Shown: one piece after another, positions 30,980-58,597 of the stretch
Layout: every line of letters begins with the position of its first letter
Position numbering within the stretch: the first letter of the stretch is position 1
Assembly (NCBI GenBank): GCA_964600985.1
Contig: CAZRJR010000001.1
Span: 235,534 to 299,533 of the forward strand
Direction: 5' to 3'
DNA: 64,000 nucleotides
From: an uncultured Candidatus Saccharibacteria bacterium
Lineage (GTDB): Bacteria; Patescibacteriota; Saccharimonadia; CAILAD01; JADZBC01
Program-made: the position numbers and the translations under genes
The notes under the pieces: generated by a model
Seen by the model: the letters and a program-made list of their open reading frames with translations, nothing else
What the model was told of the DNA's origin: nothing
Databases searched by the model: none

Positions 30980-30988
30980 GCTTTCTGG

Positions 30989-34097: not shown

Positions 34098-34147
34098 ACT
34101 TAATTTGGTTTAGGTTTACTGGGTAATAGGACTCAAATAGTAGAGTA

Positions 34148-36163
34148 TTACACTTTTGGGGGGTCTGTCGGAGGCACTAGCTCATCGTCTGTTGCAGTAT
34201 TGGTTGGGTAATTGGAGGTATTTTGTGTCACACTCCTACGACGCATTAGCCACCATATTGCGCCACTAATTATCGCAATAAGTCCCAGCATAATTGCACC
34301 AACCAGTATAGGATACTTGCGCACAATACTCTTGACTGTTTCACTATAGCGCACGAGCAGGCTCTTATTCTGTGATGTGGGTGAGGCAAGCTTTGAAATG
34401 TCACTCAGGTCGTTTGTTTTGTCCTCAGACTTGCCTGAGTTACTACTTATGCTAATGGGGGCTGCTGTTTGGTTTGAGCTGGCAGCTGTACTTGCCGTGG
34501 CATAGCTTACTTGTCCCGGTCGTTGAGTGTTAGGGTTGCTATTAGGTGCTACTCCTTCTTGGGGTAGTACCACGAATGCAGCGAACTCGGGTGCAGTGTG
34601 GGTGTTTGGTATTTCTGGCACGCTGCCAATGAGGGGAGCGACTTCGGTTAGGTTCATGGGTAGAGTAATCACCCCGCCCTTATACACACCACTTGCGATT
34701 GGCTTGCCATAGTAGTTTTGGGCATCAAGCACTACGTAGCTTTGTCCAGGTTTTAGGATTGAAGATAGATCTGCTGACACACTTGGTCGGTTTTCCCAGT
34801 TGTAAACTGCAATGTTTGCTCGGCCAGGTTCATACTTGTTGGCGCGCACAAATACTCGATTGGTGGCTTGCGACATATCGCTGGTGATTACGGAATTACG
34901 ATCATAGCGCGATCCAGCTACCGAGGCACCTGGACACGAGTTTACAGGTCCACCACTCCGACCCTGAGTGTAGTCTTTGATAGTTTGAGTTGAAGAAGTA
35001 AAGTCGCATGCCCATACAGCATCTAGTCGCTGCTGTAGTTCTGTGTCCTGAAATGGTCGAGCAGCCCCCACAATATAAGTGTTACGATCAATATTAAACT
35101 GCGACATAGGGGTGGCGTTATCAATTCGCAGCGCACTGCCTTTCTTGGCCACTACAGTGTTGTTGGTAACTGTTACTTTATCCCAGTTTTTTATGTTATA
35201 GCCCACGCCATTAGTGAGGCCGATGTAGTTATTTTGGGCAATTATCTCGCCATGCTTAGGATTAAATAGCCCCGCAGTAAAGCCGGTCCCATTTTTGTCA
35301 GGACCAAGGTAGATGTAGTTATTACTCAACACAAGTTTATCTATCGGGTTATCTTGTGACTCTACAAACAAGCCAAGGTTGTCTGTAGCTTGCAGGGCAA
35401 TGTTGCCATCAAAAGTAAAGCCATTAGCCCAACTATTGGTGGCATAGGCTTTCATGGCGGTAGTTAGGTTTCGGAAGGTGATGTTGTCGCTAATTAGGCG
35501 CTGGCCTGTTTGGTTTTGTGCGTAAATTGGTGAGCCGCGCATCTCGCCTTTATACTGCGGGCTGGTGTCATATATACCCGCTCCCCAAATCAGTGTGCCG
35601 TATATTTCGCCGCCATCACCAACTGGCCGCCAGAACCCAATTGCCGGGTGTCCAGTGTCGTGCAAAACCATATTAATCACTTTGGTGCCCTCCCCGTACA
35701 GCTCAAGCCCACCCAGCCGATCCTTGCTGGCCACATGGCGTTCGGTCATAGAGTTGGTAATCTCAAAACCCCAGTACCAGTTGAATTTACCATTTACCGT
35801 TATATGGCCATTTACCGTTGCACGCTCTTTGGGAAATCCACGAACGACAATCGGCTTGTCTTTAGTTCCATTCAGGGAGCTGGTAAATGTGGTTGTGCCA
35901 CCGCTTCCATATACGCCGTCGCGAAGGTAGATTGTGTCGCCAGGCTTAACCACGGAAGACTTACTGAGAGCTGAGGTTAAGTCCCAAGGTTTATCGATAC
36001 TACCAGGGTTGGCAGAGTTACCGGCAGGGGAAACATAATACGTTTGTGGTGGTGTCTCGGCATGGCCGCCACGAAGGGTAATTAGGGCTACAACCATCAT
36101 GCATAGTCCTGCGAATACTGCAATCGCAAAAGGCAGTCTATTGGGTTGCTGAACAAGTTTCAT
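34148..36163 (-). CDS. surface-anchored right-handed parallel beta-helix (pectate-lyase-fold) protein
   Basis: Repeated NNxI/NNTV beta-helix rungs, N-terminal TM, S/T-rich region and C-terminal TM. Confidence 0.5.
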   Translation of the reverse strand: MKLVQQPNRLPFAIAVFAGLCMMVVALITLRGGHAETPPQTYYVSPAGNSANPGSIDKPWDLTSALSKSSVVKPGDTIYLRDGVYGSGGTTTFTSSLNGTKDKPIVVRGFPKERATVNGHITVNGKFNWYWGFEITNSMTERHVASKDRLGGLELYGEGTKVINMVLHDTGHPAIGFWRPVGDGGEIYGTLIWGAGIYDTSPQYKGEMRGSPIYAQNQTGQRLISDNITFRNLTTAMKAYATNSWANGFTFDGNIALQATDNLGLFVESQDNPIDKLVLSNNYIYLGPDKNGTGFTAGLFNPKHGEIIAQNNYIGLTNGVGYNIKNWDKVTVTNNTVVAKKGSALRIDNATPMSQFNIDRNTYIVGAARPFQDTELQQRLDAVWACDFTSSTQTIKDYTQGRSGGPVNSCPGASVAGSRYDRNSVITSDMSQATNRVFVRANKYEPGRANIAVYNWENRPSVSADLSSILKPGQSYVVLDAQNYYGKPIASGVYKGGVITLPMNLTEVAPLIGSVPEIPNTHTAPEFAAFVVLPQEGVAPNSNPNTQRPGQVSYATASTAASSNQTAAPISISSNSGKSEDKTNDLSDISKLASPTSQNKSLLVRYSETVKSIVRKYPILVGAIMLGLIAIISGAIWWLMRRRSVTQNTSNYPTNTATDDELVPPTDPPKV

Positions 36164-36179
36164 GATTCACCTAGGTTTG

Positions 36180-36728
36180 TTACTTATTATGCTTGCTGGT
36201 CTCCATAAGTTCAAGCAAGGTGCGGGTAGTGTTAATGTTGCGCACCGTCATATTGCTGTACAGATCCGATTTAATGAGTTTTATGCCACCACCACGAGCT
36301 ACATTTTGTCTACCAATGTTCCACACCAAGGCTCCTGGTATGTACAAAACTTGTTCGATAGTGGGGTTTACAGATACTTTTTGTAGTATGACTTTATTGT
36401 CTATGTTGCTCCATAAAAACATAACATCGGTTTTTTGCTCGGTGTCGTTTTTCCACTCTGTTGGTATAGAAGCACATATTGAACTCAGAGCTTGGTACGT
36501 ACGCAGCACTACGGGTACGGCAAATCCAAACTCAGTTTTTATGGCTTGTTCTATAATTTGGGTGAGGGCTTTTTCGCTCCGCGTATCTTCGAATATTACA
36601 TTACCGGAGTTAATGTAAGTTATTACATGCGTGCAGCCTAAGGACTCAAATAGTACTTTGAGCCTGGCCATCTCGACTCTAGCCTTGCCGCCCACATTAA
36701 TTCCTCGTAGTAGCGCTAGGTATTGCAT
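36180..36728 (-). CDS. DUF1697 family protein
   Basis: N-terminal LALLRGINVGGKARV motif characteristic of DUF1697. Confidence 0.55.
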   Translation of the reverse strand: MQYLALLRGINVGGKARVEMARLKVLFESLGCTHVITYINSGNVIFEDTRSEKALTQIIEQAIKTEFGFAVPVVLRTYQALSSICASIPTEWKNDTEQKTDVMFLWSNIDNKVILQKVSVNPTIEQVLYIPGALVWNIGRQNVARGGGIKLIKSDLYSNMTVRNINTTRTLLELMETSKHNK

Positions 36729-37655
36729 GTAAATATTATATCGAGCTTATGGCTACCGAGCCAATATAGTTGGTTTAGGCCGCTCCTGGGGTATACTATA
36801 AGCATGACAGGTTTGAGTAAAACAGAGCGAACAGCGTTGGGGGCTGGAATGATATTAAGTCTTCTTGTGGCCGTAGTGGGGGTTTTTGCATTTGCGCCCC
36901 GCGTGCAGGCAGCAAGTTGTACTACACCTTCTCCTAGCTACGGCAGTGTTACATTGTCAACTGTTAGTATTCCGAGCGATGGTACCTACAGTGTGTGGGT
37001 ACGCATGAAGCCAGCCACTACTCAGGATAATTCTGTGTTACTACAGGTTGACACATCTGATTGTTTTAATGTAGGCGGTGGTGTGGGCGTGCCGGCAGGT
37101 AATTGGACTTGGGTGCGCCATAAGGACGGTAATGCGAACACCGTTATTCAAAAGGAACTTAAAGCTGGCAATCATGACTTTAAACTGTTTGGGAGTAAGC
37201 CAGGGCTGGCTGTAGACACGATACTGTTAAGCACCGATGGCAATTGTATTCCAACTGGTTTTGGCGAGAATTGCAGCACAAACATTGTGCTGCCAGTGGG
37301 TTCTAGCTCGTCAAACGGGGTAGGTAGCTCGACCCCGCAGGCTAGTGGCACTACGAATAACAATCTCGCCGACAACACTCAAACTAAGCAGGACATCGTA
37401 ACGCAGGCTACTCGTTACGCAGCTCAAAACTTCCTATGGATTGTACTAGTGTTAGTTGGTGCCGTAGCATTGATTGGCTTCGGCATTCGCTTTTTATGGC
37501 GATATATGGCTGCAAGAAAGGGAGAAGTGCCGGAAAGGGCGACTAATACCAATAACACGCCACAGTCTCCTCAGCCCGGCGAACTTATCCATCCAATCCC
37601 TTCGAACCCTAGTGAAAGTGCATCCCAATCCATAAATGATGAGGTAGGGCTTTGA
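36723..37655 (+). CDS. secreted protein with a C-terminal TM anchor, function unknown
   Basis: N-terminal TM/signal, S/T/N-rich linker, C-terminal hydrophobic helix plus a basic tail. Confidence 0.4.
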   Translation: MHVNIISSLWLPSQYSWFRPLLGYTISMTGLSKTERTALGAGMILSLLVAVVGVFAFAPRVQAASCTTPSPSYGSVTLSTVSIPSDGTYSVWVRMKPATTQDNSVLLQVDTSDCFNVGGGVGVPAGNWTWVRHKDGNANTVIQKELKAGNHDFKLFGSKPGLAVDTILLSTDGNCIPTGFGENCSTNIVLPVGSSSSNGVGSSTPQASGTTNNNLADNTQTKQDIVTQATRYAAQNFLWIVLVLVGAVALIGFGIRFLWRYMAARKGEVPERATNTNNTPQSPQPGELIHPIPSNPSESASQSINDEVGL

Positions 37656-38902
37656 AGCAATTTGCTCCAAATACAGGAGTTAAGCGGCTGGATCGTAGCC
37701 AGTCTATCCTAATTGGGATTATTACCACAGTTGTACTGGCTTCAGTGGTAGGTGTGTACTTGCGTTATTTCTCACACGCCGCAGGGCCTGCTCTAACTAT
37801 ACGAGTCAGCACAGGCATGATTGCTGGCGGAGCTAGCGTTGTATCGGCAAACGATGCTAATGGAGGCAAATACATTGTATTTGGGAGTGGAGCACAAAAC
37901 CCTACCCAGCCTCCGCCACCCCCACCACCTGCTGCCTCAGCTCCGGCGCGCTTGTGGGGCGTGCAGATTCATTCGGTGCCACCCACTGATACTACTGAGA
38001 ACCTTATGCGTGACTTGGACGCAGCAAAGGACTTGGGTGCTACGGTTGTTCGAGCGCCGATCAGTTGGCGCGGTGTGGAATGGAGCGGCAAGGGGCAGTA
38101 CGACGAACGCTATCTTGCCGGTATGGACGCGCTTATGCAGGGAGCGTATGCCCGCGGGATCAAAGTAATTGCTACCATCGCCGATACCCCTACCTGGGCT
38201 TCTCCGGGCGGTACCTGGAATGCAATTCCAACCGATATGGGTGGAATTGGTGACTTCGCGCGATTTATGACGAGTCGGTACAAATCTCAGTACCCAGGCG
38301 TAATTGCGGCTACCGAAGCCTGGAATGAGCCCAATGTAAGTGGAAACCTACTCAGTAGCGATGTGCCCAGGGACTACACAGCTATGGTTAAGTCAGTTTA
38401 TACTGGCACCAAGGCCGGTGACCCTAGTGTCCCTGTATTAGCGGGTTCGCTCTCGTATGCGGATACAGGGTTTATGAGCCAGCTCTATGCCAAGGGTATA
38501 AAAGGCTCTTATGATGGTGTGGCAATTCACCCTTACTCCGACACATCTGACCCCACTAACATGAATATTGTACATAGCTTCAAGGGCGGTATCGAGAGCT
38601 TTCATGCCGCGCAGACTGCAGCGGGCGACGTTACACCGCTGTGGATTACCGAGTTTGGCTGGACTACCTCTTCGAGCGCAGGCGGAGTTACTCTACAGCA
38701 GCAGTCCGACTACAGTGTGGCTGCATATGATGTTATGAAGCCTTACTCGTATATATTGGCAGGCACTCTTTATCAGATCCGTGATCAAAAGGAAGACCCG
38801 GCTAGTCACGAAGATAACTTTGGCCTCATGCACAATAACTTCACGCAGCGCCCAGCCTATACTACGGTGAAGGCTAAGCTTCCAACAATGCCACGCCAGT
38901 AG
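37652..38902 (+). CDS. glycoside hydrolase, clan GH-A (GH5-like TIM barrel)
   Basis: Conserved WNEPN (acid/base Glu) and ITEFGW (nucleophile Glu) motifs. Signal/TM N-terminus and a poly-Pro linker. Confidence 0.55.
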   Translation: MKQFAPNTGVKRLDRSQSILIGIITTVVLASVVGVYLRYFSHAAGPALTIRVSTGMIAGGASVVSANDANGGKYIVFGSGAQNPTQPPPPPPPAASAPARLWGVQIHSVPPTDTTENLMRDLDAAKDLGATVVRAPISWRGVEWSGKGQYDERYLAGMDALMQGAYARGIKVIATIADTPTWASPGGTWNAIPTDMGGIGDFARFMTSRYKSQYPGVIAATEAWNEPNVSGNLLSSDVPRDYTAMVKSVYTGTKAGDPSVPVLAGSLSYADTGFMSQLYAKGIKGSYDGVAIHPYSDTSDPTNMNIVHSFKGGIESFHAAQTAAGDVTPLWITEFGWTTSSSAGGVTLQQQSDYSVAAYDVMKPYSYILAGTLYQIRDQKEDPASHEDNFGLMHNNFTQRPAYTTVKAKLPTMPRQ

Positions 38903-38915
38903 TTGCTGCGGAAAC

Positions 38916-39728
38916 TTACTTGCCGCGGATTGCCCGCAGCACTTCTTTGGCATAGGCTTGGTTGAACACGTGGGTGGCACGCACTGTGGTGAGTGATATA
39001 TTGTCGCCACTTTTAGTTAGCTCAATGAGGTTGGGCTTTATTACTACAGGGTCGAATGCGCCATGAATTATGTGTACCGGTATTGGCAGTGAAGCGGCAT
39101 CACGCATGGCAGTTTGGTTTATGATACTCGAACGCATACTAGCGGCATACATGGCAATATTGTCTCGTGTTATATCAAGACTTGGGTCGAGCTTAGACGA
39201 TTTGCCGAAGCCATACAGTTTGATTATGAGTTCGGGTGAATCGAGGAGCTTTGCGTAAGTAAGGCGTAAAAGCTGCTCGCGGCTTAGCTTGCTGGTGTCG
39301 CTAGCTGGTCGATATATCGGCGGGCTACAGAGTATAAGTTGTCGGGTAAAACGTGGATAGCGTTTGGCAAACTCAATTGCCACGAGCGCTCCGAGGGAAT
39401 GCCCCACAATTGTAACCGGCCCATAGAGTCGAAGCTTCAAATATGTAGCTAGGAGCGAGCGAGCTTGCAGACGAGCATCGTACGATTCCCAGTATGGGGC
39501 TGGCGATTTACCAAAGCCAAGCAGGTCTACCGCTACAACGTTAACGTTGGTTGGCAGTTGTTCGATGAGAGATTGCCACATGGCACCCGTGGATCCCAGG
39601 CCATGAATGAGTAGGAGGGTTTGAGGCGCTTTCTTACTGCGTCGAATATGGCGTACATGGAGGGTATATGGCACACGCAGCCATTTATGGAGAATAACGT
39701 TGCCGAGTTTTGCAGGTCTCTTGGTCAT
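38916..39728 (-). CDS. alpha/beta-hydrolase fold protein
   Basis: GHSLG (GxSxG nucleophile elbow), HG oxyanion-like motif, ~270 aa. Confidence 0.65.
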   Translation of the reverse strand: MTKRPAKLGNVILHKWLRVPYTLHVRHIRRSKKAPQTLLLIHGLGSTGAMWQSLIEQLPTNVNVVAVDLLGFGKSPAPYWESYDARLQARSLLATYLKLRLYGPVTIVGHSLGALVAIEFAKRYPRFTRQLILCSPPIYRPASDTSKLSREQLLRLTYAKLLDSPELIIKLYGFGKSSKLDPSLDITRDNIAMYAASMRSSIINQTAMRDAASLPIPVHIIHGAFDPVVIKPNLIELTKSGDNISLTTVRATHVFNQAYAKEVLRAIRGK

Positions 39729-39754
39729 ATCTTACATTTTAACGATTAAGCTTA

Positions 39755-40370
39755 GCTCGTACTAGGTTACTGGTGTTTAGGGCGTGAAACATACGGATTG
39801 TCCTTTATATAGAACCGCCAGGGAGTTTCGGTTGCTTTGGTTATGCCGATCCTAGTGGTTCGCACGATGTTACTAGGATTAAGAGGCTTTTCTACAGTGA
39901 GCTTGAGTGGGGGTAAAGTTATGTCATGATTGTTTAGACTCATGTCTATAGCAAGTGCCTGACAGATCTATAGCAAGTGCCTGACAGAGTTTTGCTGGGC
40001 CATTAGTCAAATTGGGTCCGCGTACATTTCTGAGTGAAAGCATAGTATTTAAACCTTCTATTGGCTGGACTGCTCGAATAAGCACGGCGGCGCCCTCATT
40101 GGCGCCGCCAGTGACTATATTGCAACAGTAATGCATGCCGTAGGTAAAATACACATAGAGCCTTCCCGCTGGCCCAAACATCACCTCATTTCTCATACTA
40201 GGTCCCTTAAAGCTGTGACTGGCTGCGTCAAGCTGATCGTAAGCCTCGGTTTCAACGATGGTAGCCCTGAGGGAGCGACCATTGTAGTTTCTTTCGAGTT
40301 GACAGCCTAAGAGTCGCCTGGCGACTATCGGCGCTGGCAAAGTAAGAAAGCTGAGTGCAGTGTGTTGCAT
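39755..40370 (-). pseudogene. mpg: DNA-3-methyladenine glycosylase (Mpg/AAG family) disrupted by a 22-bp tandem duplication (frameshift)
   Basis: N-terminal 140 aa carry Mpg motifs (IVETEAY, SHSFKG, MFGPAGRLYVYFTYGMHYCCN, VLIRA). The frame ends at 39924 just after the duplication. Removing one repeat copy restores a canonical C-terminus (AIDMSLNNHD...RIGITKATETPWRFYIKDNPYVS) ending near 39755. Confidence 0.6.
39946..39989. repeat. 22-bp direct tandem duplication (CTATAGCAAGTGCCTGACAGA x2)
   Basis: Read directly. Copies occupy 39946-39967 and 39968-39989 and differ only at the last base. Confidence 0.85.
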
Positions 40371-40440
40371 ATAGTACTCCTTGTCGATCCTACTATACCT
40401 GCATTAAGTACTATGATTCTAGAGCTTAGAGTATACTTAT

Positions 40441-40815
40441 ATGGATAACGACTGGAAGGCAATAATGACAAATCATCGCATATATTCCATGAGTGTGGCC
40501 AGCGTATACCCACTTTATGTGGCAAAAGCCGAGCGCAAAGGTCGCACCAAGGCAGAAGTCGATCAAATAATTCATTGGCTTACTGGTTATAGTAAGGATC
40601 AATTCACTAAGGTCTTGGACAAAGAAATAGATTTCGAAACATTTTTTATCCAAGCTCCAAAGCTCAACCCAGCACGAAAGCTCATTACGGGTGTAGTTTG
40701 CGGTGTACGAGTCGAAGACATTACTGAGCCGACTATGCAGGAAATCCGCTACCTCGATAAGTTAATTGATGAACTAGCCAAAGGAAAGGCTATGGATAAG
40801 ATCCTGCGAGCGTAA
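40441..40815 (+). CDS. DUF2200-like conserved hypothetical protein
   Basis: [37 protein letters not shown] pattern typical of DUF2200. Confidence 0.45.
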
Positions 40816-40827
40816 TACTATAGAGCT

Positions 40828-41229
40828 ATGCCAGAGAAGCCAGTTTCAGAGCAAATCGACGATATAATCACCAAGCACGCGGGCTGGAAGGGGGAGTTAC
40901 TTACCGATCTACGACAAGTTGTACTGGATGCCGATCCAACGATTACTGAAGAAATAAAGTGGCGCATGGCTACGCGACCAGAAGGCCTGCCCGTGTGGTC
41001 GCATAATAGGATTATTTGTTTTGCTGAGATGTGGAAGGACAATGTTAAGCTACTGTTCCCAAAAGGAGCTCAACTACAGGATCGCCACAAGGCGTTTAAT
41101 GCACGGCTCAAAAGTAAAGCTATACGTGCGATTGAGTATAAAGAGGGCGATAAAGTTGAGCCGGACTCCCTCAAGGAGTTGGTCCAGCAAGCAGCGAAAG
41201 CCAACGAAACTAAAAACAAGCCCTCGTAG
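40828..41229 (+). CDS. DUF1801 (YdhG/YdeI-like) domain protein
   Basis: Size and motif pattern (ITEEIKW...P.W, NVKLLFPKGAQL) match DUF1801. Confidence 0.45.
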   Translation: MPEKPVSEQIDDIITKHAGWKGELLTDLRQVVLDADPTITEEIKWRMATRPEGLPVWSHNRIICFAEMWKDNVKLLFPKGAQLQDRHKAFNARLKSKAIRAIEYKEGDKVEPDSLKELVQQAAKANETKNKPS

Positions 41230-41842
41230 TTGAGGGCTTGTTTTTTAGTAAAGCGCATCTGGCTAAAAGACCTGCGCTAAGATCCATGCTGTGACAGCTA
41301 GGCTGATAAAGAACAGGCCAAGTCCAACTGGCGATCCCCAGCTGAACCATGAGCCCCATGCTCGCCAATGTTTTTGCGAGCGTTCATACCAGTCAATCTG
41401 CTCTTCTTTGGACAGTTTTGTCATGGCTTTGACTCCCATAGTTAATGCTATAGTGGGTCTCTACTAGCTTGTTTGCCGGCACGTAAGTTGTTCCAAGAGA
41501 TGTGGCTTGCGTTAGATAGTCGGACTTAATAACAAGAGCTATTATAGCAGAATAGACCGATAAATGGCCGCATCTATGCTTGAATGCGCAAAACGTATTA
41601 TGCGGGTGATGCTGTAAGATTTCTTATAGTGGTCAATCTGGGATACTAGTAGTATGAATACGGGTTGTACGTATGCAGCTCTTGCTTGGGCCCCGTAGGG
41701 TTAATATGCTTACTCTCACGTTATGGGCATACCTTGTGTTACCTCGAGTCTTGTGCTCGAAACCATGCCTTTACGGGGTCCAACTTGCGATTATCTCCTG
41801 ATAGCATTTCGACCATGCCTGCTACGAGTTATATATTGAGTA

Positions 41843-41871
41843 TTGACAATGCATTATATTAATGCTATTAT
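41843..41871 (+). promoter_or_regulatory. consensus sigma70 promoter TTGACA-N17-TATTAT in native AT-rich DNA, driving the GC-rich gene
   Basis: Perfect -35, a 17-nt spacer and a near-consensus -10, read directly. Confidence 0.5.
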
Positions 41872-41926
41872 TCATGAGTTGCGCGGGAATCCGTCTCGCA
41901 CACGTAGACCCATAAAGGGGAAGAAA

Positions 41927-42415
41927 GTGAAGAAGATCCTCGAGTTCGTGCTCACCATCGCGAGCAAGATGAAGATCACCGGATCGATCGAGACGACCGA
42001 TGCCACCAAGGTGCCCGACGGGGCCATGAAGGAGCGGTTCAGCCGCCTCAGCGCCCCCCTCACCGTCTTCGGTCAGCACATCTTCGACATCGTGAAGCCC
42101 GGCGGCAACTTCGCCACCGACTGCGAGAAGCTCGCCACCGACTCCGGCACCTCCGTCGTCACGATGCAGATCCCGCTGTCCGAGGGCATGTGCTTCGCCG
42201 TCAAGATGGACATCACGACCGACGGCTACCAGCCGGCGCCTTCCGACCTGCACGAGCTGGTGGCCGAGAGCATCGACCCGGCGCTCGAGGAGATCGGCAC
42301 CATCTGGTTCGGGCCCGACACCGACTCCGAGATCATCGCCGCCTGGCAGATCGATGCGGGGGCGGCGATCCGCGAGCAGCTCGGCCTGGAGACCCGTCAG
42401 CTCGTCGGGAGCTGA
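41927..42415 (+). CDS. hypothetical protein encoded by a ~66% GC insert (actinobacterial-like codon usage)
   Basis: GTG start 6 nt after AAGGGG. The GC jump begins at ~41885 and ends at the terminator. GC3-rich codons. An in-frame ATG at 41843/41849 is an alternative start. Confidence 0.5.
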   Translation: MKKILEFVLTIASKMKITGSIETTDATKVPDGAMKERFSRLSAPLTVFGQHIFDIVKPGGNFATDCEKLATDSGTSVVTMQIPLSEGMCFAVKMDITTDGYQPAPSDLHELVAESIDPALEEIGTIWFGPDTDSEIIAAWQIDAGAAIREQLGLETRQLVGS

Positions 42416-42453
42416 CCTTCACGGCCGGGCCGGCCAACCCTCCCCATCACCGG

Positions 42454-42477
42454 CTGGGACCCCTTCGGGGGTCCCAG
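42454..42477 (+). terminator. GC-rich hairpin terminator (CTGGGACCCC-TTCG-GGGGTCCCAG), with a second hairpin plus T-tract at 42505-42526
   Basis: Perfect 10-bp stem without a U-tract (actinobacterial style), followed by AGAGG-TGGT-CCTCT-TTCGTT. Confidence 0.5.
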
Positions 42478-42603
42478 CAAGGGGACAACTTAAGGACTAC
42501 TTCGAAAGAGGTGGTCCTCTTTCGTTATAGCAAGAAGGCCACTTGTAGCCACATAACGATCAGTGGGCCATGTTTGTTTGCTCATGTGGTTAAGTGGTAG
42601 TAT

Positions 42604-42861
42604 ATGGGGGTATTTGGGTACTACACGATGAAGCAGGGTTCTAATAAGAAAAAGATCTATGGCTGGATTGGAGTACTTATGCTGCCAGTCTCCTTTGCTT
42701 TATATGTATTTGGTGGGCTTGCTTTGCGGGCCACAAACTTATCAGAGGGGATGAGTGTTCTGTCAAATGCTCTGAACGCGCTTATATTTATTACTAGCTT
42801 CGTGGGGTTCTTTGCACTTCCTGTTGGGGTAATCTTTTTAGTCCAAGCTTACCGCAAGTAA
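42604..42861 (+). CDS. small 2-TM membrane protein
   Basis: 85-aa ORF with two hydrophobic helices. Confidence 0.4.
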   Translation: MGVFGYYTMKQGSNKKKIYGWIGVLMLPVSFALYVFGGLALRATNLSEGMSVLSNALNALIFITSFVGFFALPVGVIFLVQAYRK

Positions 42862-42877
42862 GCACTGACTTCTTTTT

Positions 42878-43570
42878 CTAGCGTAGTTCCGGCTTATTCG
42901 AATTTATCTCGTCCCAAAATGCATCGGCCCAGTTCTTGTAGCTCAGGTTATTGGGGTGGAATAAGTCAGGCGCAAAACCAAAGATACTTTGATGGGCAGT
43001 AGTTTGCTTCTCGAGTTCTACCAGTCTAATATTTGGATCTTGCGCAACTAATTGTCGAATAATAGCCCCGGCAGCTTTTGCTGGTTTCGTCAGTGACGGA
43101 CGGCTGTTGAAGAGCGGTAAGTCACTAACGTAGGTGCCTTGGGGTAGCTTGGAAAGCAGTTGAGCAAACTCATGGCGAAAACGGTTCTCGCTAAAGTCTC
43201 GAACATTATTTGCACCAACTTCGATCGTTACATAATCGGCTTTAATGTCGGAGGCAAGTGGGAGCTGCTCATTCAAGACGTCAGAGATTCGAGCACCTGT
43301 GGAGCTAAGGTTGATCACCCTAACCTTCTTACCCGTACGCACTTCTAGTCGCTTGACTATTAACCCTACGTAGCCACGCATAGGGCTTGTCGCACCAATG
43401 CCTTGTGCGGCCGAATCGCCGAGTGCTAGGTAGGTAATTTCACCGGGCTGCTGAGCTTTCTCTTGCCAGAACGTCTTGTAGCGAGCGACGCTTAAGTATA
43501 ACCAAAATAGTGTCATAATCTCTATCGCAATGAGGCAGCCGATAAGACCTATAATGATCTTCAGGAGCAT
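42878..43570 (-). CDS. SGNH/GDSL hydrolase family protein
   Basis: Block I LGDSAAQG, block III GANN, block V DLFHPN. N-terminal TM. Confidence 0.7.
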   Translation of the reverse strand: MLLKIIIGLIGCLIAIEIMTLFWLYLSVARYKTFWQEKAQQPGEITYLALGDSAAQGIGATSPMRGYVGLIVKRLEVRTGKKVRVINLSSTGARISDVLNEQLPLASDIKADYVTIEVGANNVRDFSENRFRHEFAQLLSKLPQGTYVSDLPLFNSRPSLTKPAKAAGAIIRQLVAQDPNIRLVELEKQTTAHQSIFGFAPDLFHPNNLSYKNWADAFWDEINSNKPELR

Positions 43571-43957
43571 TTACTTGTCTTGCAATACAGATAGAATATT
43601 GCCAGCCGGATCTTTGAACCAAGCAATGTCTGGGCCTTGGTTGGCTCGGAGCCCACGAAGCACACCTTTTTCATCTTGGAGTGCGGGTAGGTTGTCGTAG
43701 TGCTCAAGCGTTACGCCTTTTTCGGTTAGCTCATCAATTGCCGCATCGATATTATCAACCACGAAGTTTAGAGTGGTAGAAGTTGGGGAAATGTAGTCGG
43801 GTTTAGCGTAAACGAATAGTTCATCCCTACCTGGTAATTCCAACCGTAAGCCCATGGTCTCATCTATGAGTGTAAGTCCGAGTGTTTTTGTATAGAATTC
43901 TTTAGCTTTTTGTAGATCGTCTACCGATAGTCCACTAAAGGCAGCTCGTATGTTCAT
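43571..43957 (-). CDS. VOC (glyoxalase/bleomycin-resistance/dioxygenase) family protein
   Basis: ~128-aa paired beta-alpha-beta-beta-beta module sequence (FYTKTLGL...FKDPAGNIL). The stop abuts the SGNH start. Confidence 0.65.
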   Translation of the reverse strand: MNIRAAFSGLSVDDLQKAKEFYTKTLGLTLIDETMGLRLELPGRDELFVYAKPDYISPTSTTLNFVVDNIDAAIDELTEKGVTLEHYDNLPALQDEKGVLRGLRANQGPDIAWFKDPAGNILSVLQDK

Positions 43958-44186
43958 ATCGGGGTCTCCTCTTTACTCTATATCTCAAGTATACTCTTAT
44001 ATTCTTACGAATGATGTGAACTTCGTTAGCAAGATTTAGAGTAAAAGCGAAACCCTCCCGAGCTCCGCGTATTGCTATGCGAAACCCAAGAGGGTATTTT
44101 GAAAGCTTCAAACATACGCTGGCCGCCTCAATGCCAATGCCCCGGAGCGCAAGTTCCGGGGCATAATTCGTTTTAGGGATAAATCA

Positions 44187-44213
44187 TAAAAAGAGAAGGC
44201 CCCTCGCGGGACC
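44187..44213 (-). terminator. terminator of the zinc-finger gene (GGTCCC-GCGA-GGGGCC plus T-tract on the minus strand)
   Basis: Read from the reverse complement: ggtcccgcgaggggccttctcttttta. Confidence 0.45.
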
Positions 44214-44246
44214 TCCTCACAGCTTGAGTGAAGAAGCCCGGAGGGG

Positions 44247-44567
44247 CTAGTTTGGTTGCGGATGCATGACTCGACGATGAACGCCGAGGCCGCGTTTGGT
44301 GAACTTGCGAGGGCAGTCCGGGCACTGGAGGTGCGGCTTGGCCTTGTGATGGTCGAGGACGTTCTCGCTCCCGAAGCTTGCCCCGCATCCACCGATGGTG
44401 CAGATGTGGCCCCTGGCTTGCTTGACGATGAAGGACTCACTCAGCGCCGCCCCACACTGGCCACCATGACCGTTTGGAGCAGGGCAGGCGTCCAGATCTT
44501 CTCCGTCCACCGAGATCAAGCCATGCCCCTCGGGGCATTCGCGAACCAGCCAAACAGGTGTGGTCAT
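44247..44567 (-). CDS. small protein with two tandem classical C2H2 zinc fingers (GC-rich foreign-like gene)
   Basis: C-X4-C-X12-H-X4-H (CTIGGC...HHKAKPH) and C-X2-C-X11-H-X4-H (CPDCPRKFTKRGLGVHRRVMH) with the conserved F and L positions. ~62% GC. Confidence 0.45.
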   Translation of the reverse strand: MTTPVWLVRECPEGHGLISVDGEDLDACPAPNGHGGQCGAALSESFIVKQARGHICTIGGCGASFGSENVLDHHKAKPHLQCPDCPRKFTKRGLGVHRRVMHPQPN

Positions 44568-44682
44568 AATGACCTCTCGAATGAATCTGTGGGGCGGCCA
44601 CAGCCGACGTCCGTTGGGGACGATAGTAATATGATATACTAACTTAGTATAAAAGTCAATATCTGACTAAACTAAGTAGGTT

Positions 44683-46752
44683 TTACTTATTAACCTCGCC
44701 TTTAACCAGATCTAACACAACCTTATTACCATTCTTGAGTACCTTGGTGGCATGCACCGTACCTACAATACAGGGGAGATTAAACTCACGGGCTACAATC
44801 GCTGCGTGGCTCATCATGCCTCCGTGATCAGTTACGAGCGCTGCAGCCTTGCGCATAATTGGCACATAGCTCGGTCCGGTGCTTGGTACTACCACAATCT
44901 TGCCGGGCGCAACTTGCTCAGCTGGATCATGCACTACCACAACTTCACCAGTCATGAAGTGTTTACCACCACGTGAGCTGACAATACCCTTAAGTACCGT
45001 ACTGGCGGCCTTATACTCAACATACCAATCCCAGCTGCGCTCCACGTCGTCTTTTGTGAGATCGATGTTCTTACCATTAATAAAAGTCCAACCATAGTAT
45101 TGCTGAGTATCGGAGTCCACTAAGTCTTCTAATCGGCAACGTTCAATAACGCTAAGTTCTGCATTTCGCTCGCGAGCCAAGGCTTGTGCCATCTTCTCAA
45201 TCACGGGCCGGGTTTGCATCATCCAAGCCTTACGGTCATCCATAAACTCAGCAATTCGACGAGCGAGATTGAGCTGATGTTGGATGTCTTCACTGAGTTT
45301 AAACTCTTGAGCGATCGCAGCACGATCTGCCTCTGAACCCAAGACAGCATCACTATTACCCTCAAGATCTTTGATGCGCTGGGTAAAGTAAGTAACAAGA
45401 CTCTCGCGTTTAGCCACCCCAGCATAGCTATTAAGCGCCCATCGAAACTCGTCGGCCAGCTTCTCGGGATCCTTCAAGCGTAGTACTTTCTCATCAATCT
45501 GATTAATAAAAGTTGGTTTATCCGGCAAGCTATACGCACCCCAAATGCGGTGAATATCTTTCTCATCAAAACCCTTGAGATGCTTGGCGATCGTAGCTTC
45601 AGCACCATAGAGGGAAAACTCGGCTGCGAAGGTGGTTTGCCAGACAGCAGTGAGAAGGGGAAGTAACTCACCTGGTTGATAGGTTTTACTCAGATCAATC
45701 GCATCGACGGCTGCTCGCCACTGGGCTTGATCGTCATCTAAGTCACCATGCTCGGCATACCAAGCAAACAGCGGCTCAGTAAACTCAGCAAAGGCCGCTT
45801 TCTTATTGAGCCAAAGGAACTTATCTTGATGCAGAAGGACGAGGGTCTTGGGTGGGTTGGGGTAGGTGGTGTCGGTGTGCCACTGGGTGAAGGTAGTACG
45901 CACCGCGGCCAGGAAGTCGCTCATATATAAGGTGCGGCCTTGGGCAGGACCCCAGTAGAAGAGATCGCCCGGATCACCGAGGTAGTGATAGCCCTCGCCG
46001 GTGCGCTCGATGTTGAGAGTAGTAATAGGGCGAGACTGGGTGATCCAGAGCTTACCGGACTTATCGATAGCCCACTCGATGTCTTGTGGGGCGCCGGCAA
46101 AGAGCTGTTCAATCTCCAGGCCAAGCCGGATGAGCTCGTCGGTTGCAAAGGGGATGGGGAGGGCAGAGGAGAGCTGCTTGGTGGTGCGGTCGTAGGTGAA
46201 GTCTTCGGGGGTGGCTTTGCCGCTGACGAGTTGTTCGCCAACACCCTGGACGTACTCGATGACGAGCTGGTTGGCACCGCTGACAGGGTTTTGGGTGAAC
46301 ATGACGCCAGCGTAGGCGGGGTCGATCATCTCTTGGACGACAACCGCGACCTGGATGGCTTGCTTGTTGTTAGAGGCTTCTGAGTAGGCCTTGGCACGGG
46401 CTTTGATAGCAGCGTGACACTGTTCGACCTTCTGGGGCACATCGGCCGCGGCGACATAGAGGAAGGTCTCGAATTGGCCGGCCCACGAGGAGTCGATGGC
46501 GTCCTCGACGGTGGCGGAAGAGCGGACGGCGAAGAGGGTGTCGGGCGCGCGGGTGGCGAGGAGGGTTGTGAGATGGGTGGCGGCTGCGGGGGTCAGGGTT
46601 GCGCTTTCTTCGTCTGTGAAGGCGTCGATGCTGATCGCTAAGCCGTCGGGGACGGGGAGCTTGGCTTGGAGCATTGAGGCGAGGTTAGTGGCCTTGCCAC
46701 CGTAGAGGGTGGAGGAGGTGGCGTTTTGTAGGGGATTGATGGTTTGTTGCAT
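44683..46752 (-). CDS. PEP-utilizing enzyme family phosphotransferase (PEP synthase / rifampin phosphotransferase-like)
   Basis: N-terminal ATP-grasp motif GGKATNLASM and C-terminal mobile phospho-His domain TDHGGMMSHAAIVAREFNLPCIVGT. 689 aa. Confidence 0.75.
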   Translation of the reverse strand: MQQTINPLQNATSSTLYGGKATNLASMLQAKLPVPDGLAISIDAFTDEESATLTPAAATHLTTLLATRAPDTLFAVRSSATVEDAIDSSWAGQFETFLYVAAADVPQKVEQCHAAIKARAKAYSEASNNKQAIQVAVVVQEMIDPAYAGVMFTQNPVSGANQLVIEYVQGVGEQLVSGKATPEDFTYDRTTKQLSSALPIPFATDELIRLGLEIEQLFAGAPQDIEWAIDKSGKLWITQSRPITTLNIERTGEGYHYLGDPGDLFYWGPAQGRTLYMSDFLAAVRTTFTQWHTDTTYPNPPKTLVLLHQDKFLWLNKKAAFAEFTEPLFAWYAEHGDLDDDQAQWRAAVDAIDLSKTYQPGELLPLLTAVWQTTFAAEFSLYGAEATIAKHLKGFDEKDIHRIWGAYSLPDKPTFINQIDEKVLRLKDPEKLADEFRWALNSYAGVAKRESLVTYFTQRIKDLEGNSDAVLGSEADRAAIAQEFKLSEDIQHQLNLARRIAEFMDDRKAWMMQTRPVIEKMAQALARERNAELSVIERCRLEDLVDSDTQQYYGWTFINGKNIDLTKDDVERSWDWYVEYKAASTVLKGIVSSRGGKHFMTGEVVVVHDPAEQVAPGKIVVVPSTGPSYVPIMRKAAALVTDHGGMMSHAAIVAREFNLPCIVGTVHATKVLKNGNKVVLDLVKGEVNK

Positions 46753-46795
46753 AAGGTTACTCTAGCGCTGGCTACGTTGTTAATTGGGGTTAAAA

Positions 46796-47452
46796 TTACT
46801 GTGCAGCAGTCAATTTATCGATTGGAAAATCCCGCCAATTATCAAAACTGGCTGTTACAGCTGGCTCAGACTTAAGTTGGCTCAAGTCGTAGAATAGATG
46901 GTGTTGTGGCGGTGCGAACAAGAAGAGGGGGACTTTAGCGTTCTGGGCAGCACCTGTATCCTTATCGGAGTCACCAACGAAGACGGTATTTTTAATCTCG
47001 CTACCTAGACGCTCAAGAGCAATAAAAAGCGGAGCTGGATCAGGTTTGTGTTTATCGGTATCACCAGCAGATATAATTACGTCGAACATGTGTTCTATCT
47101 TATTATTACTAAGGGCAGAAGAGAGCATCTTCGATGTTGATGTTGAGACAAGTCCAAGTTTGAACCCTTTTTCTTTTAACGACTTTAAGGTGTCTTCTGC
47201 ACCGGGGTATAACTCTACTTTTTCCAATCTTTCATAGACCGTCTCAAGGTGCTGGTTATATTCATCGACATCTTTTGGCTTAACACCTAAATCAATATAT
47301 GCATCCCATATACCAAATCTACTACTTATATCCTTATCAGAGGGGTGTACACCAACTTTGGCATACGCCTCCTTGAATGTTTGTAGCCACACTTCTAGGG
47401 TTTGTGCCAGAGTTCCGTCCCAATCAAAAAGAATAGTGTTAATCTTTTTCAT
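46796..47452 (-). CDS. HAD-superfamily hydrolase (beta-phosphoglucomutase/phosphatase-like)
   Basis: Motif I ILFDWDGTLAQT, motif IV GDSDKD. Confidence 0.8.
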   Translation of the reverse strand: MKKINTILFDWDGTLAQTLEVWLQTFKEAYAKVGVHPSDKDISSRFGIWDAYIDLGVKPKDVDEYNQHLETVYERLEKVELYPGAEDTLKSLKEKGFKLGLVSTSTSKMLSSALSNNKIEHMFDVIISAGDTDKHKPDPAPLFIALERLGSEIKNTVFVGDSDKDTGAAQNAKVPLFLFAPPQHHLFYDLSQLKSEPAVTASFDNWRDFPIDKLTAAQ

Positions 47453-47459
47453 ACATCTA

Positions 47460-47498
47460 TCATAACAAAAGTCCCACTCGCATTTCGAGCGGGACTTT
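47460..47498 (-). terminator. terminator after the 242-aa gene (13-bp stem AAAGTCCCACTCG/CGAGCGGGACTTT, one mismatch)
   Basis: Hairpin followed by TTTTGTTAT on the minus strand. Confidence 0.5.
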
Positions 47499-47582
47499 TG
47501 ACTTGTAGATTACATCTAATATAAGTGCCTGGCTGAGCATATGGGTCTAGTACCATTTATTTGATGCACTGCGATATATTTT

Positions 47583-48311
47583 TCAGTCGAAAGAAAAATA
47601 CGGATTATCAAGTTCAAATTCTAGTTCTACACCGCGAATAATCATGACCCGGGAGTGTTTATTAGTGCCATGAATAGATACCAACACTAAGATCTCACCA
47701 GGCTTTAATTTGTTCATGATTCTATGGCTAGCATAGAACTGAGCTATCTGAGTCGGAGGTGCGTCAACTACGAAATAGTAAACTTTAATATAGCCTGACT
47801 TATCATTTGTATTGTAATCCTGGTATTTTGAATGCTGTTCACGCTTTGTTTCGTAGAGTTTAGAGATTTTTACTGAGAGGTTGGTATTTTCACTAACTAT
47901 AAGAGTTCCATTTTCAGTTTTTCTTATCCAGACCTTCTCATCTGGAAACGATTTATTAAGATTAGTACCCTTCTTTACGTTTAAGGTTCTGTTAATTAAT
48001 GCCTTAGTATCATTAATGGTATCAAAACGATAATTAACAAATGCAACTTCTGCGATTCCTTGGTAGTCATGTCCGTTTGCACGAATGCTTATCTCTGCTT
48101 CAGGAGAAGACTCTTCATTTGAGCAGATCCTTGTTAGGAAACCGCTACGGTGAAGCTCAAAAATCGCTTTTATCTCAGCCTTTATATCATCTGGACAAGC
48201 CGTAAATCTACTATGTACAAAATGTTTAAAATCGACATACCCCTTAGTTGCGGCCAACGCCTCCAGCATCTCACAATAGGGGCTAGGTAGTAACTTATTT
48301 GGATTAGTCAT
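47583..48311 (-). CDS. hypothetical protein (AT-rich, ~37% GC) adjacent to tRNA-Gln
   Basis: 242-aa ORF with its own terminator. Composition is well below the backbone. Confidence 0.45.
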   Translation of the reverse strand: MTNPNKLLPSPYCEMLEALAATKGYVDFKHFVHSRFTACPDDIKAEIKAIFELHRSGFLTRICSNEESSPEAEISIRANGHDYQGIAEVAFVNYRFDTINDTKALINRTLNVKKGTNLNKSFPDEKVWIRKTENGTLIVSENTNLSVKISKLYETKREQHSKYQDYNTNDKSGYIKVYYFVVDAPPTQIAQFYASHRIMNKLKPGEILVLVSIHGTNKHSRVMIIRGVELEFELDNPYFSFD

Positions 48312-48376
48312 TTAGGCTGGTTTCCATACGCCACATTAGAAATAGGGACATGAGTCAGAAATTCTAGTATCGCGTC

Positions 48377-48451
48377 TGGCTGGGGCGGAGGGATTCGAAC
48401 CCCCGAATGGCGGCACCAAAAGCCGCTGCCTTACCACTTGGCGACGCCCCA
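48377..48451 (-). tRNA. tRNA-Gln (anticodon UUG), CCA encoded
   Basis: Hand fold: acceptor TGGGGCG/CGCCCCA, D-arm GCC-AAGTGGTAA-GGC, anticodon stem GCGGC/GCCGC with loop TTTTGGT, T-arm GGGGG-TTCGAAT-CCCTC. The architecture is near-identical to E. coli tRNA-Gln. Confidence 0.8.
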
Positions 48452-48563
48452 GTATCGAACTAAATAACAACCACAATCGTAGCTGAATTTGAGCGGTTTT
48501 TCAACCTGTAGATCTGCGCGAATGCATTCATAGTATGCTGCTTATGCTAAAATCCTAAGTATT

Positions 48564-56801: not shown

Positions 56802-57800
56802 ATGGCCGAGGATTCTCGCAGCACCAAGCGAGTCGTTCTTATCGGTGGCGGAACAGGTAGCTTCACACTCCTTACTGGTCTTAAGCGGCACTTCTCGGAC
56901 ATTACGGCGATTGTGAATATGAGCGATGATGGCGGTTCTACGGGCGTGCTTCGTGATGAGCTTGGCGTACTGCCACCGGGAGATATTCGCCAGTGCCTCG
57001 TGGCCCTTAGTAGGGATCAGGGTACCATGCGAGACTTGTTTAATTATCGGTTCGACAGCGGCGGTTTGCACGGGCATTCATTTGGCAACTTGTTCTTAAG
57101 TGCTCTCGAGAAGATCACAGGCAGTTTCTCCGAAGCAGTCGATCATGCCTCAAAGGTCCTTAACATTGAGGGGCGGGTTTTGCCGGTCACGCTGACCAAT
57201 AGCAATCTTGTGCTAACGCGACCAGATGGTACGAAGATAGAAGGCGAATATGCTGTCGCAAACCACAAGTTATCGCCCGGCGAGAGGCCACACCTTGAGC
57301 TTGCGCCGCGCTCAGTCATAAACCCGTTGGCGGCAGAGGCTATAGTTGCCGCGGATATTATCGTAATCGCCCCTGGGCACTTGTACGGTAGCATTGCGCC
57401 AGCCTTGTTGGTGGATGGAATGCAGCAGGCTTTTGAGGGTTCAAAAGCCAACATAATGTACGTGTGTAACTTGGTTACAAAGCCGGGGCAAACTGATGGG
57501 TTCATGGTGCACGATTACGCCAGTGAGATTGAGCGGTTTATTGGTGTAGAGTGCTTGGACGTGGTGTTGTACAGCAACGAACAACCGAGCGCAGAGGCTT
57601 TGCGTAAATACACTGCTGAAGGCGAACATTGGGTGGGGCACGATGTAGAGGTTTTAAAAGGCATGCATTACAAAGCGATTGGAGCAGACTTGCTCTCAAG
57701 CAAGGACGTAGTGCAGAAAGCATCGGATAAGCTGATAAAGCGAAACTTAATCCGTCATGATGGGGGCAAGATCGCAGGGTTGATTTCCTCCCTCGTATAA
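56802..57800 (+). CDS. YvcK/CofD-like (UPF0052) gluconeogenesis-factor family protein
   Basis: N-terminal VVLIGGGTG and family-typical length. Confidence 0.8.
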   Translation: MAEDSRSTKRVVLIGGGTGSFTLLTGLKRHFSDITAIVNMSDDGGSTGVLRDELGVLPPGDIRQCLVALSRDQGTMRDLFNYRFDSGGLHGHSFGNLFLSALEKITGSFSEAVDHASKVLNIEGRVLPVTLTNSNLVLTRPDGTKIEGEYAVANHKLSPGERPHLELAPRSVINPLAAEAIVAADIIVIAPGHLYGSIAPALLVDGMQQAFEGSKANIMYVCNLVTKPGQTDGFMVHDYASEIERFIGVECLDVVLYSNEQPSAEALRKYTAEGEHWVGHDVEVLKGMHYKAIGADLLSSKDVVQKASDKLIKRNLIRHDGGKIAGLISSLV

Positions 57801-57811
57801 GCAAAACGAAT

Positions 57812-57855
57812 GAGAGCCCCGGATGGAGCGTTTAGGCTCTCATCCGGGGCTCTTG
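57812..57855. terminator. bidirectional terminator (13-bp stem AGAGCCCCGGATG/CATCCGGGGCTCT) between convergent genes
   Basis: Read directly. 15-nt loop. Confidence 0.55.
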
Positions 57856-57874
57856 GTGTTGGGCCCTGTTTGGG

Positions 57875-58495
57875 TCAGGCCACCTCTGCCGGCCCGGTCC
57901 CGTCGAGGGCCTCCGCCTTCTCGGGCGGCCAGACGTCCTCGTCCGCGAGGACGATGCCGTTGAGGTACTTGGCCCCGATCGGGGCATCCTCGGTGCCACG
58001 GAGCTCATCCGCGGTCTCCTTGGCCTTCTTGCCGACAGCCTCGAGGAGCTCTCGGAGCTTGTCGATGCACTGGCAGTACACCGCCCAGTCGTCCTCCTTG
58101 GCGAGGCCGGACACGCCGCCGAGGAACTCCTCGTGCATCCCGGCTCCCTCCCAGGGGAAGTCGCCTGGACGCAGCATGACGTAGTCCGTCTCCGCCTCCA
58201 GGGAGGTGACGCTGATCGTGCGAAGCACGTACGTCAGCTTGCCGGCGACGTTGTTGTACGTGCCGCCGGGCTCGTTGCTGGCCTTGGGGTCACCGAGGAC
58301 GCCAACGAAGATCTCGTGGGCGAGTGGGTTGCGCCACTCGAGGCACGCCTGCATGAGGTTGTCGGGGTCGAGGATGACGAGCGTGATCCCCTTGTTGGGG
58401 AACCGCTCCGCGAACTCCGCGGCGAACTCGCCATGGAACCAGTCGTTGAAGCGACGCTTCACATCGATGCCGAAGTGGTTGGTGAGATCCAGCAT
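57875..58495 (-). CDS. hypothetical protein encoded by a ~65% GC insert (actinobacterial-like codon usage)
   Basis: 206-aa ORF. GC3-rich codons (ctc, gtc, cgc, gag, gac) only in this frame. Abrupt GC boundaries at the terminator (57855) and at ~58500. Confidence 0.5.
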   Translation of the reverse strand: MLDLTNHFGIDVKRRFNDWFHGEFAAEFAERFPNKGITLVILDPDNLMQACLEWRNPLAHEIFVGVLGDPKASNEPGGTYNNVAGKLTYVLRTISVTSLEAETDYVMLRPGDFPWEGAGMHEEFLGGVSGLAKEDDWAVYCQCIDKLRELLEAVGKKAKETADELRGTEDAPIGAKYLNGIVLADEDVWPPEKAEALDGTGPAEVA

Positions 58496-58597
58496 GAGCT
58501 GTCTCCTGTTCTCCCTTGTGGGGTTCGGACCGCCAGATTGCGATCAAGGGTGCTATAATAGCACTAAATAGGCTTTTTGTCAATAATTAACATTGCT

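Follow-up and report, generated by a model that had tools for sequence, protein, structure and literature searches.

Two codon styles within one Saccharibacterial dikinase gene of Rph-like architecture: a possible within-clade mosaic allele

Mosaic genes are an already known phenomenon, and the novelty of one more is modest. In aph(3')-IIa (PMC4437187) and in Campylobacter alleles (PMC3139442), the sequence switches abruptly at a conserved stretch inside an intact open reading frame (ORF), the parents are known, and the trees built from the different parts are discordant. Here, a gene for a putative dikinase of the phosphoenolpyruvate (PEP)-utilising superfamily is described from an uncultured Candidatus Saccharibacteria bacterium. 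It lies on the minus strand of a 64,000-nucleotide stretch (hereafter the window; positions 235,534 to 299,533 of contig CAZRJR010000001.1, assembly GCA_964600985.1), and its codon style switches sharply near codon 305. The gene resembles the above mosaics in showing an abrupt switch within an intact ORF at a conserved stretch. Unlike in those cases, no parent was found, and the trees of its two parts agree.

Among described dikinases, several systems can be compared with the product of this gene. The rifampin phosphotransferase of Listeria (Rph-Lm; structures 5hv1 and 5fbs; PMC4844700) has an ATP-grasp domain, a central acceptor-binding domain and a C-terminal swivelling phospho-His domain in this order, and its residues Lys22, Arg117 and His825 position ATP and carry the phosphate (PMC4844700). 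The query has the same order of domains, and Rph-Lm is its best structural match in the PDB; alignment to the Listeria enzyme, as proposed in an earlier note on this DNA, showed that Lys20, Arg77 and His649 of the query match those three residues. Nevertheless, its acceptor-binding domain is about 100 residues shorter and strongly diverged, and resembles the rifampin (RIF)-binding domain of Rph-Lm (residues 327-754) weakly. The two-component small-molecule dikinase HpeHI of Rhodococcus (PMC12167813) has the superfamily and the swivel mechanism in common with the query, the ATP-grasp structure of HpeI (9goj) matches the N-terminal domain of the query, and some relatives of the query family are likewise split or have an extra swivel partner. 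However, the query holds three domains on one polypeptide, sequence identity to HpeHI is low, and a context of aromatic catabolism is missing. The PEP synthase PpsA and the pyruvate phosphate dikinase PPDK have homologous ATP-grasp and swivel domains, but their His domain is central, whereas that of the query is terminal and followed by no PEP/pyruvate TIM barrel. The prodiginine ligases PigC, RedH and HapC have the same domain order, but the query is about 200 residues shorter and lacks a prodiginine pathway context.

The composition of the gene changes abruptly within its reading frame (Table 1). The earlier note had put the N-terminal part at about 58-60% GC and the remainder at about 47%. 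Both its coordinates and its percentages proved accurate, and a GC plot, run here in 200-bp windows, reproduced the shift (0.57-0.67 over positions 45800-46700 and 0.45-0.54 over 44700-45700, with 49.5% for the whole window). In 50-codon windows, GC content at third codon positions (GC3) runs at 0.68-0.86 as far as about codon 300 and at 0.36-0.54 beyond it. GC at first and second positions (GC1 and GC2) changes little along the gene, and the shift thus concerns mainly the third positions. A maximum-likelihood change-point was placed after codon 305, where GC3 falls from 0.76 to 0.47 and the frequency of C at third positions (C3) from 0.60 to 0.22. Its log-likelihood ratio of 31.8 is far beyond the maximum of 7.3 obtained in 500 permutations. 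The DNA across the junction reads ...ccc aag acc ctc gtc / ctt ctg cat caa gat..., the slash marking the change-point. The 5' segment thus delimited encodes the ATP-grasp domain and ~50 residues at the start of the central domain. In nucleotide coordinates, the GC-rich tract extends from ~45836 to ~46723, so that its 5' edge (support 46712-46742) lies ~10 codons inside the gene, and the 43-bp spacer and the HAD-family gene upstream have ~43% GC. Meaningful repeats bounding the tract were not found. An antisense ORF at 45940-46383 (+) was considered as a cause of the composition and rejected, having no Pfam or PADLOC match.

The two parts are also distinguished by their choice among synonymous codons. 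In the N-terminal part, CTC accounts for 21 of 31 Leu codons, GCC for 28 of 41 Ala, ACC for 26 of 32 Thr, GTC for 14 of 18 Val and ATC for 14 of 16 Ile, while CAA and GAA are still common. Its relative synonymous codon usage (RSCU) correlates at 0.18 with that of 24 native genes, at 0.80 with that of two high-GC cassettes of the window, and at 0.72 with the genes of L028, a 57% GC contig carrying a homologue of one cassette gene (loci retrieved from other assemblies bear L numbers, homologous proteins P numbers). For the C-terminal part the corresponding values are 0.62 (native genes) and 0.12 (cassettes). The parts hardly differ in amino-acid composition, and at codon positions 1 and 2 the query has diverged from its nearest homologues as much as a control pair of those homologues from each other; therefore, the difference is essentially synonymous. 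It also lies outside normal intragenic variance. Native genes of the window have GC3 of 0.35-0.62 in 100-codon windows, and no other gene has an internal range greater than ~0.22. Among 88 ORFs of at least 400 aa from the window and the fetched loci, comparable or larger steps occur only in ORFs of L024, a 65-70% GC contig on which several of the step-bearing ORFs overlap one another. In 18 homologous genes from other genomes the two halves differ in GC3 by at most 0.07, and none of the 18 has the step.

Recombination within the clade, giving a mosaic allele, is our best reading of this split codon usage, held with belief and doubt in about equal measure. We infer both such an event and its direction: in an intragenic recombination or gene-conversion event, one portion of the gene would have given way to its homologous counterpart, drawn either from the allele carried by a related Saccharibacterium within the same clade or from a gene pool using the C-rich style. 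The conserved PPKTLVL stretch that holds the change-point would be the likeliest place for a crossover between diverged alleles; P301 is invariant in an alignment of 115 family members, and P298, P300, L306 and F307 are at least 90% conserved. Ready uptake of DNA is thought to be a trait of the Saccharibacteria lineage. If imported, the tract came from a Saccharibacterium of the same clade with the C-rich style, and not from an Actinobacterial or otherwise foreign homologue. The earlier note had proposed a mosaic of a native and a foreign homologue; the mosaic survives in this form, while the foreign homologue was not found and both halves belong to the same clade. Other sources were considered and rejected. 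For an Actinobacterial host or another cross-phylum donor, the Saccharibacterial family was retrieved first and named Actinobacterial proteins reached 40-48% identity; plasmid or phage sequences reached at most 40%; and the split ATP-grasp and swivel system of L024 has 40% identity.

Several results weigh against a mosaic. Neighbour-joining (NJ) trees were built for each half with our own implementation and 200 bootstraps. Both halves fall in the clade {P1..P9} in 200 of 200 replicates each, and the narrower clade {P1..P6} is recovered in 133 of 200 for the N-half and 191 of 200 for the C-half. The nearest relatives are identical for the two halves (P0002-P0006, then P0007-P0009), and identity to them is 61-65% for the N-half and 67-69% for the C-half, a ratio typical of pairs within the clade. 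The two halves thus give no discordant phylogeny, by which a foreign segment is classically recognised. No parent or donor sequence was found in any database searched. With the N-half alone, a word-indexed search of 5.8 billion proteins returned nothing closer than its own family (59-65%), and an exhaustive HMMER search over 1.84 billion representatives gave a best match of 59%, again in its own family; exact 27-mers from either side of the junction had no match in JGI metagenomes. A simple double homologous crossover is also hard to picture, because the edge of the tract coincides with the gene start and the context upstream is unconserved. Moreover, the C-rich style itself is no proof of transfer, because a 206-aa and a 208-aa gene of high GC3 in the window, with constrained third positions, are syntenic and conserved in relatives.

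The junction, in addition, is found in the NCBI assembly alone. Records of the full-length protein come from the NCBI contig (486,810 bp) and no other source, while its neighbours also occur in Logan assemblies. Two Logan contigs of ~2.4 kb, each from a different SRA run, are 100% identical to the window on either side and stop 40-70 bp from the change-point. L031 corresponds to window 43351-45789 (codons 322-689, a Cys/His-rich ORF, the VOC gene and the start of the SGNH gene) and independently shows the native-style C-part linked to its downstream genes. L032 corresponds to window 45908-48289 (part of a 242-aa ORF, the HAD gene and codons 1-281) and independently shows the low-GC HAD gene contiguous with the C-rich N-part. 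Joining of two alleles or loci by the NCBI contig, through a short shared sequence near codon 305, would agree with the ends of these contigs at 45789 and 45908, which bracket the change-point, and with the single record of the full-length protein; a graph branch at the junction, caused by polymorphism or chimerism, is a real possibility. Yet we consider such an artefact rather improbable. The join is in frame, at a homologous position and with all family-invariant residues kept. L032 and L031 pass the start and the stop codon unbroken, and a second allele with the same flanks is not evident. A chimeric join requires shared k-mers, which alleles of different codon styles would seldom have, and the contigs are short and break at 43351 and 48289 as well, so that low coverage may explain their ends. 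Even if the join were wrong, L032 by itself has the low-GC HAD gene abutting the C-rich N-half.

The C-rich style is not confined to the dikinase gene. Four other GC-rich islets occur in the window (~27650-28500, 41850-42650, 44100-44650 and 57700-58550). The 206-aa gene mentioned above (57875-58495, minus strand) has GC3 of 0.91 in a genome of ~50% GC; it has syntenic orthologues in L027 (5001-5603, 85% amino-acid identity) and L029 (6001-6639, 61%) and a homologue in L030 (5001-5702, 50%), all with GC3 of 0.86-0.93 within flanks of ~50-54% GC. Third-position differences in this family are 0.24-0.38 though positions 1 and 2 have diverged by up to 0.34. Its synonymous sites look strongly constrained, because third positions are barely more diverged than the other two. 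The 206-aa protein has no Pfam, PHROG or PADLOC match. The 208-aa gene (27872-28498, minus strand) has GC3 of 0.75, and its syntenic orthologue in the relative L033 (5001-5627) has 0.76; the two are 90% identical in protein and 83.5% in DNA, while the flanking DNA is 67-72% identical and the L033 genes on either side are 61-87% identical to those of the window. Clustered at 90% identity, this ORF falls in a group of 17 members from many datasets, whereas most native neighbour genes are singletons. Some force therefore keeps the C-rich style in particular genes. High expression was considered as its cause and is not supported, since ribosomal protein S20 and ATP synthase genes of the relatives have ordinary or low GC3; a classical highly expressed gene against which codon style could be calibrated is absent from the window.

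If the same force that holds GC3 at 0.75-0.93 in a few conserved small genes also acted on the dikinase, codons 1-305 would have gained and kept their C-ending style in situ, with no import of DNA. Such a force could be selection on synonymous sites or biased conversion. The maintenance of high GC3 in the counterparts of the 206-aa and 208-aa genes, the cassette-like RSCU of the N-half and the concordant phylogeny of both halves all fit an origin in situ. We regard it as unlikely, however, though somewhat less so than an assembly artefact. No selective force is known for half of an ORF with a boundary five codons wide, and the swivel domain, the most conserved part of the protein, is written in native codons. 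None of the 18 homologues has any such trend. Unlike the cassettes, the N-half keeps CAA and GAA and avoids G at third positions (0.16 versus 0.36), and the codon usage of S20 and ATP synthase genes in relatives leaves expression as no explanation here either. A wider proposition, that this Saccharibacteria group maintains a second, C/G-ending style (GC3 0.75-0.93) in a few conserved syntenic genes of its ~50% GC genomes, with synonymous sites strongly constrained, and that the 5' 305 codons of the dikinase gene are written in it, is put forward as a doubtful one. If true, it would imply an unrecognised segment-specific process, for which ordinary one-off recombination is insufficient; candidates would be a shared high-GC gene pool recombining into chromosomal genes, or selection on the DNA or RNA of the segment.

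Table 1. Coordinates of the dikinase gene, its compositional segments and its neighbours in the window.
Feature	Position	Strand	Remarks
Complete dikinase ORF	44683-46752	-	ATG start, 689 aa
5' C-rich segment	45838-46752	-	codons 1-305; GC3 0.76, C3 0.60, G3 (G at third positions) 0.16
Change-point interval (2-lnL support)	45829-45843	-	codons 303-308; inside conserved PPKTLVL motif
3' native-style segment	44683-45837	-	codons 306-689 and stop; GC3 0.47, T3 (T at third positions) 0.36
Stretch joined only in NCBI assembly	45790-45907	.	118 bp; L031 and L032 end on either side
ATP-grasp (PPDK_N) domain	46003-46752	-	residues ~1-250; Pfam span ~15-250
Central, mostly helical domain	44998-45987	-	residues 256-585 (330 aa); presumed acceptor-binding
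Phospho-histidine swivel domain (PEP-utilizers)	44686-44997	-	Pfam span residues 615-685
Lys20	46693-46695	-	counterpart of Rph-Lm Lys22
Arg77	46522-46524	-	counterpart of Rph-Lm Arg117
His649 codon	44806-44808	-	putative catalytic residue in TDHGGMMSH motif; aligned with Rph-Lm His825
HAD-family hydrolase	46796-47452	-	43 bp upstream of dikinase; GC 0.42
Independent high-GC cassette	44193-44659	-	downstream of dikinase; promoter-like site, ORF, terminator-like hairpins
VOC/glyoxalase	43571-43957	-	abuts SGNH gene
SGNH hydrolase	42878-43570	-	abuts VOC gene
tRNA-Gln	48377-48451	.	end of variable accessory region

Within the PEP-utilising superfamily, the gene product belongs to the Rph-like branch, and from its sequence it is judged to be an ATP-dependent dikinase. 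A Pfam scan of the protein gave PPDK_N (PF01326, 8.5e-45) and PEP-utilizers (PF00391, 1.5e-25) and nothing else, placing the His domain at the C-terminus. The PEP/pyruvate TIM barrel (PF02896) is absent, and residues ~250-580 have no Pfam match. An AlphaFold2 (AF2) model built from 115 homologues has a mean predicted local distance difference test (pLDDT) score of 90, and of 94 in the central domain. Compared with the PDB, the model retrieves Rph-Lm structures on top (5hv1, E = 6.5e-28 over ~900 alignment columns), ahead of PPDK and PpsA. In a sequence search of the PDB, the matches extend only over the ATP-grasp and swivel domains, and the best of them are PpsA/PPDK (8a8e, E = 1.2e-51). Domain order and structural matches together indicate the order of Rph-like dikinases and probably their overall mechanism too. 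Enzymatic activity would then be expected from the domains and catalytic residues that are present: the N-terminal ATP-grasp domain would bind ATP, His649 of the swivel domain would take the beta-phosphate with release of AMP and Pi, and, carried by the swivel domain, the phosphate would reach the helical central domain and be transferred to an acceptor there.

The earlier note had assigned the architecture to Rph-type enzymes rather than to a full PpsA. The order of domains and the lack of a TIM barrel bear this out, but the score cut-offs of the Rph models are missed widely. In NCBIfam, NF041857 gave 167 bits against a cut-off of 999 and NF000283 gave 126 against 1700; the PpsA models NF005057 (235 against 598) and TIGR01418 (218 against 740) and the PigC/RedH/HapC models (177-178 against 1300-1350) are missed as well. 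Membership of the Rph family proper is thus largely refuted. Rifampin is probably not the acceptor, nothing having been found in its favour. Pyruvate cannot be the acceptor: with the TIM barrel missing and the His domain terminal, the known mechanism for making PEP from pyruvate is not available to the protein. Annotation of the gene as a PEP synthase or as a rifampin-resistance gene is therefore unwarranted.

By homology, the protein belongs to a large, uncharacterised family of Saccharibacteria and Patescibacteria. Homologues were sought among 5.8 billion proteins, the best 120 matches were inspected, and 115 sequences were aligned. Nearly all of the best 120 are full-length, mostly of 620-700 aa, with 43-66% identity; the few named ones bear the name 'PEP/pyruvate-binding domain-containing protein' and belong to Saccharibacteria, Saccharimonadales or Patescibacteria. 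Twenty-two loci come from GTDB representative genomes, in the majority metagenome-assembled genomes of Saccharibacteria or Saccharimonadales. The query keeps every invariant column of the alignment, in the N-half and C-half alike, including an invariant helix of the family (D505-x-R507-K508...R515); therefore, the gene looks functional. The family occurs in one-component, two-component and fused forms. In L003 and L004, which are copies of the same place and are counted once below, the dikinase gene is followed by one for a 366-aa partner, in which a second swivel phospho-His domain is present (L003 11858-12958, L004 11742-12842). In L005 (~8050-9129) this partner is apparently fused to the dikinase, giving the 1049-aa P0007; P0007 and P0008, with 1049-1051 aa, appear to be the fused form. 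The high-GC L024 (5947-7803) has a split system, in which a 230-aa ATP-grasp ORF is followed by a 364-aa swivel protein. No paper on this dikinase family in Saccharibacteria was found in the literature.

The genes around the dikinase had suggested to the earlier note a cluster for modification of small molecules or for resistance. Its view, a rifamycin phosphotransferase with a foreign ATP-grasp half acting together with the HAD, VOC and SGNH genes, is favoured by the Rph domain order and the Rph-Lm structural matches, by the HAD gene lying just upstream, which may be co-transcribed with the dikinase gene, and by a VOC gene (glyoxalase/bleomycin-resistance fold) nearby. It is nonetheless highly improbable. 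Among 20 distinct homologue loci compared, VOC, SGNH and the small ORFs never stand next to the dikinase family, and three loci (L009, L022 and L003/L004) have a HAD gene no more than 3 kb from the homologue; the proposed cluster is thus not conserved, and it is also interrupted by an independent small cassette (Table 1). This cassette has a promoter-like site at 44659-44631 (10/12 match) in an AT-rich spacer and terminator-like hairpins at 44218-44193 (-) and 44137-44164 (+). Its 106-aa Cys/His-rich ORF (44247-44567, minus strand) has two C2H2-like zinc-finger motifs with weak Pfam matches (7e-06), and the protein is recorded from a Logan assembly and is not in the NCBI annotation of the genome. 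An anti-phage defence role of the dikinase gene or of the cassettes was also considered and rejected, as no PADLOC match of note was obtained.

Comparison with the relative L033 (GCA_964436255.1) puts the dikinase gene in a variable accessory region. Synteny with this genome includes a DEAD helicase, VTT, the 208-aa ORF, a response regulator and HisKA, is lost at ~30,980 and returns at 48,564 with an amino-acid permease in the opposite relative orientation. The intervening ~30,980-48,563 (17.6 kb in the window) is absent between those genes of L033 and contains GH5 glycoside hydrolase, alpha/beta hydrolase, MPG, DUF2200, DUF1801, SGNH, VOC, dikinase and HAD genes. Such a variable and compositionally patchy region fits a history of recombination and gives no support for a dedicated resistance cluster. 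A low-GC block at 46796-48311 (-), with GC of 0.37-0.42, comprises the HAD gene and a 242-aa ORF that matched no family, and it adjoins tRNA-Gln; given its contrast to the GC-rich tract, the 6.5 kb between 41.8 and 48.4 kb can be described as a patchwork of three compositions.

Some other features of the window were recorded. A high-GC cassette at 41843-42520 (+) has GC up to 0.69 and GC3 of 0.88. It carries, at 41843-41871, a promoter-like site close to consensus (TTGACA-17-TATTAT and an upstream TG; 11/12), which suggests that the true start of its ORF is downstream of the listed TTG, and a terminator-like hairpin at 42493-42518; searches of Pfam, PHROGs, phage records and viral contigs gave no match for the ORF. 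A 126-aa ORF (27368-27748, plus strand) at the margin of the 27.6-28.5 kb islet matches PHROG 323 'transcriptional regulator, D5-like' (8.6e-10) and may be a phage-derived remnant. A fourth Rfam tRNA match at 24385-24488 (-), with 46.6 bits and 104 nt against a 71-position model, was not called by ARAGORN and could represent a tRNA that carries an insertion, an intron or a long variable arm. In addition, a 558-aa protein (9263-10939, plus strand) matches Thy1 (ThyX) in two stretches, the best at residues 383-517, and is far longer than the 191-position profile.

If the junction is confirmed on reads, the sharp switch halfway through the dikinase gene would mark recombination cleanly and in a way that can be dated. 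More intriguing as a lead than the mosaic itself is the C-rich style conserved in a handful of genes. Since relatives share several whole C-rich genes, conserved and in synteny, a GC3 island in these genomes is not automatically a sign of recent horizontal transfer. The gene also represents a large, conserved and unstudied family of dikinases of Rph architecture in this group. Saccharibacteria live as epibionts and have minimal genomes, so that a small-molecule kinase that is conserved and consumes ATP probably matters to their physiology.

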